From IMG/VR virus record IMGVR_UViG_3300046463_000164: 64,000 bases of DNA; one strand, 5' to 3'. Below the pieces are notes generated by a model that saw only the letters and a list, made by a program, of their open reading frames with translations, was not told where the DNA came from and did not search any database. Position numbers and translations under genes: made by a program. The stretch is from a virus. Positions within the stretch are counted from its first letter, which is position 1. Each line of letters begins with the position of its first letter. Shown piece after piece: positions 23,873 to 63,184 of this stretch.

Positions 23873-24569
23873 TATTCAGCTCCTCACCCAATTCAAGATC
23901 AACATCTTCAGGAGTATCTTCAGCCGCAGACAGATCAAACATGAAGCTATCGAATTCTACTTTCTTCTCACGCTTTTTCTGTTTATCAAGTCCATACTTC
24001 TCTTCATATTCGGCAATCTTGCTCATGAAGTCTTGACCCAGAGCACCGATATCCGCTGTTTCACCATCACCGCTCAAGTCTGCCATATCTTCATCGCGGA
24101 ATGCGTCAGCGCCACCCAGAAGTTGGAAACTCTTATACTTGAGATACTGTTCGCGTTTCTCAGCGTCGATACGGTGGGTGAAGCTACGCCAGATAATCAT
24201 ATTGATATAACCGAACGCGCTGACCTTACCTTTCTTCTCGGACTTCTTCTTAGGGTTGAAGTTGTGAATATATTTGACGCAGTGAAGAATCGCGTCCGAC
24301 TTCATTTCATCCAAATACGAATAGGCATGGAAGTTGTGACGTTTGCCCATCGCTTCTGACATATCGTAAATCGCTTCACCAACGGCCTCGGGCAGCTTGG
24401 GGCGTTCTTGACCTGCCGCAACTAGAGCATCAAAGCGTTCTTTCCATTCGGAGAGGATAGCAGTCAGATGATCATCATCAATATAATGTCGGCTAGGCTT
24501 TGCTGCTACGGGAGCATCTTTGGAGAAGGAAATTGACTCTACTTCGTTGTCTTCAATAAGTTCAGGCAT
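23859..24569 (-). CDS. 55: late-transcription sigma factor (gp55)
   Basis: HYID, NF..YSY.DEM.SDAI, NF.P.K and AF.Y...I...F..RI..EK; T4-like synteny. Confidence 0.88.
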   Translation of the reverse strand: MPELIEDNEVESISFSKDAPVAAKPSRHYIDDDHLTAILSEWKERFDALVAAGQERPKLPEAVGEAIYDMSEAMGKRHNFHAYSYLDEMKSDAILHCVKYIHNFNPKKKSEKKGKVSAFGYINMIIWRSFTHRIDAEKREQYLKYKSFQLLGGADAFRDEDMADLSGDGETADIGALGQDFMSKIAEYEEKYGLDKQKKREKKVEFDSFMFDLSAAEDTPEDVDLELGEELNIEFE

Positions 24570-25062
24570 TCAGCAACCTTTCATGTGAAATCTTTTGTAC
24601 ATCATATTTATCATTGGACATTGACATATCCACGTTTCTTGAACCGAAACCAGCGTATTCGTCTGCTAGTTCGTTTCCGTAAGTACCTGCGTGTCCCTTA
24701 ACCCAGCTAATTTTGGCATTGCCGTGCTTATCCCAGGCTTCAAAGAGCGGGATGAACATATCTGGATTTTTGATACCTTGGTATTTGTTTCGCTTCCAGC
24801 CGTGTCGCCATTCATTGATGGACTTAACGACATATTGCGAATCGGAATAGATTTGGATTTCCCAGTCTTTCTTGTCCGCGAATGTCAGCATCGTAAATAA
24901 AACTCCGCCAATCTCGCCTCGATTATTTGAGGATGGGGCAGGGAGGTGCCCATATCGAACAAATTTCTTTTGACCCATCATGAAGACCGCGCTCCAACCA
25001 CCGACACAGTCGGGTTTGCCATTTGCGATCGATGAGCCGTCAGTCCATACTTCAAGCTTCAT
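24562..25062 (-). CDS. rnhA: ribonuclease HI
   Basis: TDGS, NNRGE, SDSQYV and WVKGHAG..GNE.AD motifs. Confidence 0.92.
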   Translation of the reverse strand: MKLEVWTDGSSIANGKPDCVGGWSAVFMMGQKKFVRYGHLPAPSSNNRGEIGGVLFTMLTFADKKDWEIQIYSDSQYVVKSINEWRHGWKRNKYQGIKNPDMFIPLFEAWDKHGNAKISWVKGHAGTYGNELADEYAGFGSRNVDMSMSNDKYDVQKISHERLLNA

Positions 25063-25303
25063 TCATTTCCTAATCAGTTAACACTATAGGAATTATACTA
25101 TGGAGTATGTGAAAAGTAAAGTCCTTTCTATGAGTTTTTATTAGCAGTGATAGGTGAGTCCGTAACGGCTCGGGCTATCCTTTACTATACCTATAGGATA
25201 AAGCCCGCCTGCGGCCTGCTAATCGTTGCCTATCGACATCTTAACCGGTTACACTACCAGGAAACCTTATATAAAACTTTCATAAAAATAAGTGAAATAC
25301 CAC

Positions 25304-25332
25304 TTTACTTTTACATAGGATGGGGGTATAAT
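25304..25332 (+). promoter_or_regulatory. rightward sigma70-like promoter TTTACT-17-TATAAT with no downstream ORF
   Basis: exact match to the recurring phage promoter motif. Confidence 0.8.
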
Positions 25333-25338
25333 ATCGGC

Positions 25339-25664
25339 TGTTGTAAAGTTTGCGTGGACGGTAAGACAAGACGGTGGCGCGCTAACTTGTAATTGGAACA
25401 CCACGCATCGAAGATATTCCAAACCCTGCAATCTAAGCGGATACGCTTGCATGACCCTAGGGCTTCGACTGTTAGATAATCACGACAGCGTAAGAGGGTG
25501 TAGCTTTCATCGGACGATTATGTAACCGATGGGCCTATGGCTCCGTATATGGGAGGCATTGGAAGATGAGCTACGGGCTTAATTGCCCGGGCTATCTTTC
25601 GCCTAATCACCGTGCTGGGGTCGAAAGGATAAAATAAAACCCCTTAGAGTAAACTAAGGGGTTT
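25339..25664 (+). ncRNA. candidate structured ncRNA of about 320 nt
   Basis: between promoter and terminator; many nested stems; no ORF in the track on this strand. Confidence 0.65.
25637..25664. terminator. hairpin terminator AAACCCCTTAG-agtaaa-CTAAGGGGTTT, probably bidirectional
   Basis: 11-bp perfect stem between convergent units. Confidence 0.75.
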
Positions 25665-25679
25665 GTTTCTACATAGGGA

Positions 25680-26045
25680 TTATACTGAACCTAGATCATA
25701 CAGCGTAGCATAGGATACTTTCTGATAAGTACCCGGTGCCTGCTTAAGATACAGGCCATTGATTAGGGCAGTATCTCCCCAAACTCTCACTAGCAAACCA
25801 ACTTCTAGAGTTGAATCGGCCGCAATCATATCACTATAAAGGCGCTGGTCAACCACCTTCTGAACATAATGAAAACGCGTCAGATCAGCCACGATGCCAG
25901 ACAGCGTTTTGATTGTATTGCCGTTATCCAGAGCAACAGTGTCCGTTGCGGCACCATTGATGAAGGCGTTGAGTTTTGCGTTCAATGCAGATAACTGATC
26001 GATCAATGTTGAATATTGTTGATCAAGAGCCGGTTGTTGGATCAT
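25680..26045 (-). CDS. hypothetical late protein
   Basis: ORF track; downstream of holin-like gene. Confidence 0.7.
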   Translation of the reverse strand: MIQQPALDQQYSTLIDQLSALNAKLNAFINGAATDTVALDNGNTIKTLSGIVADLTRFHYVQKVVDQRLYSDMIAADSTLEVGLLVRVWGDTALINGLYLKQAPGTYQKVSYATLYDLGSV

Positions 26046-26389
26046 TTATTGTCCTCTCCTTCTCCCAAATCGAATGGGGTGATCTTTTCAAGAATACCCT
26101 TAACCAATCGGGAAATATAAGCATTAAAAATGTCCAATAGTGGAAAGACGCAGAAGCCGGACATTAGTAGCAACCCATCGTGATATTGATGCAGGCTATC
26201 AGGTATCATTGAGCCTACTACCTGACCTACAAAGAATGACAGTAGAACACAAACGATAAACGATAGAATGGAGAAAGGTTTTTCTCCCTTATATAACTGA
26301 TACAGCGCTTGAGCAGCGCCACCAAACGAAGCAAGCACCCCAGCAGCAGCCAAGTCTGATATACGGTCTATAAAACTAGAAACTGTCAT
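26042..26389 (-). CDS. putative holin (3 TM)
   Basis: three hydrophobic segments, FGG and SGF motifs, charged tail. Confidence 0.65.
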   Translation of the reverse strand: MTVSSFIDRISDLAAAGVLASFGGAAQALYQLYKGEKPFSILSFIVCVLLSFFVGQVVGSMIPDSLHQYHDGLLLMSGFCVFPLLDIFNAYISRLVKGILEKITPFDLGEGEDNK

Positions 26390-63109: not shown

Positions 63110-63184
63110 TGGTCCCGCGTCAAGGAATCGAACCTCATTCTGACGGTGAACATACCGCCCATCCTACCAATAAACGAACGCGGG
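63110..63184 (-). tRNA. atypical tRNA with 8-nt anticodon loop (TATGTTCA)
   Basis: perfect acceptor stem, canonical T-arm, CCA. Confidence 0.65.

Follow-up and report, generated by a model that had tools for sequence, protein, structure and literature searches.

Large RNAs that combine several interlocked pseudoknots with invariant junctions are rare, and those whose function has become known have usually proved to be ribozymes, riboswitches or the cores of ribonucleoproteins. GOLLD and ROOL are large ornate RNAs of about 580-800 nt and of unknown function, often found in phages or prophages near tRNA genes; both are Rfam families and are reportedly the subject of a cryo-EM preprint (10.1101/2024.12.08.627333). 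HEARO, or the omega-RNA of IscB and TnpB, was once an orphan structured RNA and was later shown to be a guide scaffold. A defined fold is also needed by RNA II of ColE1, a primer RNA that acts through an RNA-DNA hybrid cut by RNase H.

In phage T4 the origins oriF and oriG consist of a promoter plus an unwinding element, and their R-loops are probably processed by RNase H and are unwound by UvsW (PMC3016281). These R-loops need no specific RNA sequence but require an A+T-rich unwinding element just downstream of the promoter, and active T4 origins lie near points where transcription switches strand (PMC3016281). The specification of R-loop origins in T4-type phages is a listed open question (PMC3016281). 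A survey of structured RNAs in IMG/VR covered motifs of 29-151 nt only (PMC10690425).

In this work we focused on an intergenic RNA gene in a 64-kb stretch of phage DNA, referred to below as the window. The evidence supports well that this RNA belongs to a real, previously undescribed family of structured RNAs, which matches no described family.

A non-coding transcription unit beside RNase HI

The window belongs to the large genome of a T4-type phage, with genes for the gp6 baseplate protein and tail fibres on the plus strand from 26.8 kb and 18 tRNA genes at 58.4-63.6 kb. By protein similarity, the nearest cultured phages are Pseudomonas phage Cygsa01, Ralstonia phage RSP15 and Delftia phage PhiW-14 (38-49% identity). 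The RNA gene lies in a gap of 617 nt (25063-25679) flanked by the RNase HI gene and a gene of 121 aa, both on the minus strand; downstream of RNase HI follow, on the same strand, the gp55 late sigma factor gene and then gp47 and gp46. The features of the locus are as follows.

24562..25062, minus strand: RNase HI gene, divergent neighbour of the RNA gene (Pfam RNase_H, 2.7e-26; PHROGs)
25120-25092, minus strand: RNase HI promoter, of the same type as that of the RNA
25304..25332, plus strand: sigma-70-type promoter of the RNA (TTTACT 25304-09, 17-base spacer, TATAAT 25327-32; 10/12 matches)
25339..25670, plus strand: predicted primary transcript of the RNA, copy A (covariance model scores 271-287 bits)
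25637..25664, both directions possible: terminator hairpin (11-bp stem) flanked by an A-run and, opposite, a T-rich run
25680-26045, minus strand: convergent 121-aa gene

The first-pass annotation had placed a consensus promoter and a terminator around some 320 nt free of open reading frames (ORFs), and this anatomy was recovered on re-analysis. The promoter lies exactly where it had been put, with transcription predicted to start at about 25339-25340, and its -35 and -10 boxes are kept among the relatives compared while the adjacent intergenic DNA diverges. The conserved folded core extends from 25341 to 25623, giving an RNA of about 285 nt plus the terminator, which begins 14 nt past the core. 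The hairpin at 25637-25664 can act as a terminator in either direction, for the plus-strand RNA and for the 121-aa gene that converges on it from the minus strand; the terminator listing gave it on the minus strand only, and the plus-strand version, with its tail TGTTTCTA, was found with a separate criterion of our own. Its stem covaries in the relatives. A terminator occurs within 30 nt downstream in 12 of 17 copies, and promoter and terminator are both kept at most of the 17. No conserved ORF was found on either strand of the RNA region across the 17 homologues.

Compared with shuffled sequences, the region folds with a z-score of -2.8 on the plus strand and -4.0 on the minus strand, so that folding energy alone cannot decide which strand is the RNA. 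The plus strand is identified by the orientation of promoter and terminator, together with the many G.U pairs (e.g. U25355.G25379), which would be A.C mismatches on the opposite strand. The gene specifies a non-coding RNA, which would act neither as an mRNA nor as an antisense RNA of a simple kind, nor as a primer devoid of structure.

The two promoters of the gap stand back to back, are of the same type (CTTTACTTTT..TATAAT) and lie 184 bp apart (RNase HI, 25092-25120, minus; RNA, 25304-25332, plus). The spacer between them (25121-25303) is poorly conserved in the closest relative and holds GGGCTATCCTTT (25173-84), which is similar to GGGCTATCTTTC of the RNA (25589-600). Two genes away from the RNA, a 115-aa ORF (26042-26389, minus) weakly resembled holins (PHROG 6384, 1.5e-4; Pfam Phage_holin_3_3, under its cut-off). 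In the tRNA cluster, ARAGORN reported a tRNA-like gene with an irregular loop and an undetermined anticodon ('gt') at 63110-63184 (minus) and at L038:916-990; it has the same position in the cluster of both phages and is absent from the Rfam tRNA-model list.

Family and fold of the RNA

A search of IMG/VR with exact 19-20-mers returned a single close relative, G001 (IMGVR_UViG_3300046678_000067; 74% complete). Its sequence is about 93% identical to the window over the core (25339-25615) and about 60% over the rest of the gap, with 89% identity between the RNase HI proteins, and the differences within the core are largely compensatory. RNase HI homologues from a large protein collection led to 12 further contigs. 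A first covariance model (R1) detected the RNA at 144-288 bits in the window and at 12 loci of relatives (L001 of G001 and 11 of the 12 contigs), always on the strand opposite RNase HI, in agreement with the divergent transcription that had been annotated. At the RNase HI of L026 (52% identity) the RNA is missing from this position.

A search of whole IMG/VR records revealed a second, diverged copy in G001. A degenerate pattern scan yielded G002, a complete IMG/VR genome of 170.7 kb with three copies, and an RNase HI profile scan yielded G004, a complete genome of 165 kb with one distant copy (32.8 bits, E 2.5e-9). The family comprises 18 members in metagenomic phage contigs, namely 13 beside RNase HI, the paralogues in G001 and G002 and the distant member in G004, with one to three mutually diverged copies per genome. 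A full scan of five cultured relatives (Cygsa01, RSP15, PhiW-14, VP-1 and 207E48.1) with model R2 gave no match, and neither did a blastn search of INPHARED with the intergenic region. Two matches of the degenerate pattern in JGI metagenome contigs were rejected as chance occurrences within high-GC coding DNA. The host phages of the family, uncultured and of the T4 type, form a clade akin to PhiW-14, RSP15 and Cygsa01.

The copies occupy the following positions.

Copy A: beside RNase HI, in the window, at the RNase HI loci of 12 relatives (L001 being copy A of G001) and in G002
Copy B: in G001 and G002, with the UvsW helicase gene on one side and a gene with a KilAC domain on the other
Single copy of G004: 85 nt upstream of uvsY, with uvsW and an inserted GIY-YIG endonuclease gene on the other side
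Copy C: between a DUF2786/DUF7168 gene and small ORFs, transcribed against both, in G002

The neighbours of the RNA genes are thus RNase HI, UvsW, UvsY and small ORFs. Copy B is transcribed away from uvsW and towards the KilAC-domain gene, which in G001 is followed by uvsY. From the placement of the copies across genomes, the uvsW/uvsY site is probably the ancestral position of the RNA.

The corresponding uvsW/uvsY gap of PhiW-14 gave no model match with the filters off, and its folding z-score is only -1.5. This gap (GQ357915.1 ~25552-26070; L107:1982-2500) separates the divergent genes uvsW and uvsY by 390-520 ORF-free nucleotides. It has a TATAAT box and short family-like motifs (CGCAAUCU...UGCAUG, GGCUCC, GGCUAU..UCAC), the latter not collinear with those of the family. 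A GIY-YIG/NUMOD3 homing-endonuclease-like ORF lies between uvsW and the RNA in G004 (L105:756-1421, minus), and a faint NUMOD3 ORF lies close to another RNA locus (L022:181-696, minus); these ORFs are signs of local insertion activity at intergenic sites. G001 also has a possible suppressor tRNA, predicted by ARAGORN next to tRNA-Arg(UCU) (L037:18032-18104); its UUA anticodon would decode UAA stop codons.

The elements of the fold, in the coordinates of the window, are listed below.

25350-56 with 25378-84, plus strand: P1 hairpin (98.3% paired; all 7 pairs change on both sides)
25374-77 with 25401-04, plus strand: PKa pseudoknot, GUGG of the P1 loop with CCAC of the P2 loop (100% paired)
25393-98 with 25417-22, plus strand: P2 hairpin, UUGGAA with UUCCAA (best duplex, at the same place, in 14/14 sequences)
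25408-13 with 25463-68, plus strand: PKb long-range pseudoknot, UCGAAG of the P2 loop with CUUCGA (100% paired in 17 sequences)
25424-27 with 25459-62, plus strand: P3, CCCU with AGGG (98.5% paired; 3/4 pairs change on both sides)
25428-29/25449-50 and 25435-39/25444-48, plus strand: P4 hairpin (covariation)
25454-58 with 25495-99, plus strand: P5, ACCCU with AGGGU (100% paired; 4 pairs change on both sides)
25469-74 with 25483-88, plus strand: P6 hairpin, within P5 (95% paired; 5 pairs change on both sides)
25489-94, plus strand: conserved joiner GCGYAAG
25507-13 with 25526-32, plus strand: P8 hairpin, UCAUCGG with CCGAUGG (99.2% paired; all 7 pairs change on both sides)
25540..25551, plus strand: nearly invariant single-stranded motif GGCUCCGUAUAU (alignments)
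25561-67 with 25594-600, plus strand: P11, GGAAGAU with AUCUUUC
25569-72 with 25590-93, plus strand: P11b, AGCU with GGCU
25574-78 with 25585-89, plus strand: P10, CGGGC with GCCCG
25607..25611, plus strand: conserved 3' tail motif UCACC, kept in G004 and followed by a variable linker (alignments)

Nine helices (44 pairs) were tested in A8, a model-made alignment of 17 sequences. Standard pairs filled 98.7% of the cells, compared with 35-40% in controls whose 3' partner was slid by 1-3 columns; owing to the phylogenetic kinship of the 13 copies beside RNase HI, such cell counts overstate the number of independent events. Thirty-four of the 44 pairs changed on both sides, the covariation score was 0.729 compared with 0.08-0.13 for the slid controls, and none of 500 shuffles reached any of the observed covariation measures. 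Helices P1, P4, P5, P6 and P8 were in the model structure, towards which model-made alignments lean. PKa, PKb and P3 lie outside this structure and the alignment was never fitted to them, so that their pairing in the 17 sequences (100%, 100% and 98.5%, with compensatory swaps) provides independent support. P2 and the long hairpin P10-P11 were recovered by energy calculations on single sequences in all 14 sequences tested.

The pseudoknots are formed by PKa, PKb and P3, each of which crosses other helices. PKa crosses P1 and P2, and swaps UA for CG and GC for AU, in either direction, in seven to eight sequences. PKb crosses P2, P3 and P5 and occurs as UCGAAU/AUUCGA, UCGAAC/GUUCGA, UCGGAU/AUCCGA and UCGAGC/GCUCGA; in the distant member G004 it is wholly replaced by CUACC/GGUAG with its position kept. 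P3, with the variants CCUC/GAGG, UCCU/AGGA and ACCC/GGGU, crosses P5 and encloses the P4 hairpin. All bases from 25454 to 25474 are paired, with four different partners in succession. A pairing of the 3' tail with the ACCCUG region was also considered, and was displaced by the better-supported P3.

Among the other helices, P2 shows many compensatory variants (e.g. UGAGAAU/AUUCUCA, GGAGU/ACUCC, AGUAGUU/AGCUACU). P1 has a U.G pair (25355/25379) in 12 of the 17 sequences, replaced by C-G, U-A or A-U in five members, and encloses a nearly invariant loop of 21 nt (GGACGGUA...AGACGG). P8 carries an inner extension of 2-4 bp and a conserved 3' AA. P11, P11b and P10 form a long irregular hairpin (25561..25600) present in the minimum-free-energy fold of 14/14 single sequences; the cognate P11 duplex has -13.4 kcal/mol versus -9.3 kcal/mol for non-cognate strands, and its variants include GACAAA/UUUGUC and UUUUAGGUUGA/UCGACCUAAAA. 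The strands joining the helices are nearly invariant.

Accordingly, the family is defined by P1-P6, P8, P10-P11, PKa and PKb with a promoter and terminator of its own, all of which the window copy possesses, and by the motifs GGACGGUA..AGACGG, CGCAAYCU, GCGYAAG, GGCUCC, GGGCYA and UCACC.

About half of the stems proposed by the first-pass annotation are part of this fold. AAGCG/CGCTT (P4), ACCCT/AGGGT (P5) and CATCGG/CCGATG (P8) are confirmed by covariation, as is GGGC/GCCC (P10), which was recovered in 14/14 sequences, and TTGGAA 25393/TTCCAA 25417, proposed as a crossing pairing, is P2, which does take part in a pseudoknot. Four others, TGCGTGG 25351/CCACGCA 25401, ACAAG/CTTGT, GTAGCT/AGCTAC and the loop-loop contact ACGGTG/CACCGT, are paired in only 62-74% of cases in the 17 sequences, which is not above shuffles (132/500), and the 3' stem TATCTTTCG/CGAAAGGATA is lost even in the closest relative. 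GCCT/AGGC, which would form a small stem P9 around GGCUCCGUAUAU (GCCU 25533-36 with AGGC 25554-57), is unproven, the cognate strands pairing no better than non-cognate ones (-8.1 vs -7.5 kcal/mol). In many members the 5' strand of P11 has look-alike partners upstream, at P9, and downstream, at P11 (25533-25557 / 25594-25604), two copies of GCCU in the window and two of ACCUA in L032 being examples. We considered a 'switch', in which P9 and P11 would form conserved alternative pairings, and rejected it, as the crude cognate/non-cognate energy test gave P9 no support.

Possible role of the RNA

The reading that we favour, and to which we would give an even chance of being correct, is that the family is a new class of stand-alone RNA which depends on its fold and acts in trans, as a binding scaffold or decoy or as a ribozyme. 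The non-coding gene is an independent one, which host RNA polymerase would transcribe from the sigma-70-type promoter, against the direction of the neighbouring genes. The RNA folds to a compact core of at least ten helices (P1-P6, P8, P10-P11, PKa, PKb), with PKa, PKb and P3 crossing others, and would work in trans through its three-dimensional fold, as a scaffold binding a protein or ligand, a decoy or a ribozyme. From the anatomy of the locus alone, we infer action in trans: pairing and junction nucleotides are preserved while the sequence of the helices is free, two of the three positions (A and C) are without a co-directional downstream gene, and the RNA has its own promoter and terminator. 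One point against this reading is that copy B is always co-directional with and upstream of uvsY, which would fit a role in cis or linked to an origin.

Such a link to replication is the better of the remaining readings, and a doubtful one. Each copy would mark an R-loop-type origin, where the transcript hybridises to its template, is processed by RNase HI into a leading-strand primer and is later removed by UvsW, the fold controlling when and where the hybrid forms, as in ColE1 RNA II. The first-pass annotation had proposed a similar primer RNA as one of two possibilities. T4 oriF is, as we understand it, ori(uvsY), and we take the uvsW/uvsY site of copy B to be its equivalent. This site is occupied in G001, G002 and G004 and holds the sole copy of G004, and copy A adjoins RNase HI, about 1.2 kb from the strand switch of transcription at ~26.8 kb; the presence of several copies in a genome would also match the several origins of T4. 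However, each of these adjacencies represents one inherited event and not repeated independent placement, and the RNase HI-gp55-gp47-gp46 module of PhiW-14 and RSP15 is without such an RNA. The strong self-structure and the terminator 14 nt after the core disfavour a persistent hybrid, and GC skew follows the direction of transcription and cannot identify an origin. Moreover, a tightly folded RNA of about 50% GC is found where T4 has an A+T-rich unwinding element (PMC3016281).

With little confidence, we consider the RNA as a folded, pseudoknotted initiator of phage origins, made at the equivalent of ori(uvsY) and, after duplication, at further sites that include the one beside RNase HI. If this were true, structure would gate a hybrid that RNase HI trims to a primer and UvsW dismantles; no virulent phage would have shown a structured initiator RNA before, and origin choice in T4-type phages could be approached from sequence.

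A cis-regulatory role is less probable still. The ancestral copy B would be a large riboswitch-like or attenuator leader controlling read-through into uvsY and the downstream recombination genes, and copies A and C would be derived orphans or would control antisense read-through into the convergent genes. The complexity of the fold is riboswitch-like, in G004 the RNA and the uvsY gene after it share a strand and are separated by 85 nt that hold no more than a weak terminator, and copy B points to the KilAC-domain gene in G001 and G002, with uvsY next in G001. In G001, however, a fresh promoter follows the terminator before the next gene, and the test for a conserved alternative pairing, the signature of an expression platform, was negative. 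The other two positions fit a leader poorly: copy A of the window faces minus-strand genes behind a strong terminator, and copy C of G002 faces genes on the opposite strand, although no terminator was found there within 90 nt.

The family is a well-defined target, since it combines strong comparative support, a defined transcription unit, paralogues and positions next to two phage enzymes acting on RNA-DNA hybrids; it is open to studies of structure, of catalysis or binding and of T4-type origin mapping.

Comparison with known RNA classes and origins

At gathering threshold, Rfam 15 identified only tRNAs in the whole window and in the whole G001 genome. In an E-value scan of 751 nt around the RNA the best hit had E 0.6 and covered the terminator only, so that no match was obtained at gathering score or at E<0.1, and nothing recurrent appeared in seven relatives. 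Group I introns, RNase P RNA and tmRNA gave no Rfam match even at E<=10, in the 751 nt or in the seven relatives, and ARAGORN found no tmRNA in the window or in G001. The two central claims of the first-pass annotation, that hallmarks of tmRNA and RNase P RNA are absent and that the locus encodes an unrecognised, pseudoknotted structured RNA class, are supported by these searches, the latter also by the syntenic homologues beside RNase HI and by the strong covariation.

Characteristic of a tmRNA are an acceptor stem ending in 3' CCA and a T arm, as parts of a tRNA-like domain, together with a frame that encodes the tag and has a resume codon; no such frame is conserved in this RNA. A tmRNA-like identity had been considered from the motif GGAUUCGAC and was dropped, as GGAUUCGAC is one strand of helix PKb and not a D-loop analogue; a double T-loop was likewise dropped after PKb had been found. 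RNase P RNA has paired 5' and 3' ends (P1-P3) and a P4 pseudoknot made from CR-I and CR-V. Here the 5' end folds into a hairpin of its own, and its two termini, unlike those of RNase P RNA, do not pair with one another; the idea of an RNase P RNA came from a few short motif likenesses seen by eye, with no model match.

A group I intron is flanked by exons, ends in G, carries an invariant U.G pair where its 5' splice site lies and binds G through a G-C pair of P7. The central pseudoknot of the RNA has the strand order P3 5'-hairpin-P5 5'-P3 3'-hairpin-P5 3', which we take to equal the P3-[P4-P6]-P7-P3'-P8-P7' of group I, and the RNA further resembles group I by a conserved 6-nt joiner before the 3' strand of the P7-like helix and by the U.G in P1. 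However, nothing in group I corresponds to PKa and PKb, the U.G of P1 varies among members, and the P7-like helix has a single invariant pair, a C-G whose C belongs to the 5' strand, presumably the reverse of the G-binding pair of group I. The topology matches and the defining features fail, and the group I idea was rejected. That the RNA is nevertheless a highly diverged form of a catalytic or structural RNA already known, be it a ribozyme like group I, an RNase P RNA or a tmRNA, as its strand order, the conserved U.G of P1, the likeness of GGAUUCGAC to the tmRNA 5' region and the 18-23 tRNA genes of the phage might suggest, is very improbable given the negative Rfam and ARAGORN searches, the assignment of GGAUUCGAC to PKb, the missing tag frame, the presumably reversed P7-like pair, the replacement of the P1 U.G in five members and the absence of exons, since promoter and terminator abut the fold.

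No reverse transcriptase domain (RVT_1, PF00078) was matched in G001 or in the complete genome G002, which argues against a retron-like role. Likewise, the lack of a match to the TnpB-type domain PF07282 in the complete G002 and the 74%-complete G001 argues against a guide scaffold of TnpB. The RNA resembles HEARO/omega-RNA as an orphan pseudoknotted scaffold of a few hundred nucleotides with several copies per genome, but it has no HEARO match and no variable guide-like end, its 5' leader being conserved among the A copies.

Points of likeness to T4 oriF/oriG and ColE1 RNA II are a promoter to drive the RNA, its place at uvsW/uvsY and beside an RNase H gene, and its occurrence at several loci. 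It differs from the T4 origins by a conserved pseudoknotted fold, a GC content of about 50% and a terminator directly after the fold.

Like GOLLD and ROOL, the RNA is phage-borne, independently transcribed, large and rich in pseudoknots, and resides in genomes with tRNA clusters. In contrast to them it measures about 285 nt, has another helix layout with no Rfam match to either family, and comes with one to three diverged paralogues per genome in uncultured T4-type phages. Phage metagenomes thus still contain large structured RNA classes of a kind missed by surveys of short motifs (29-151 nt; PMC10690425).
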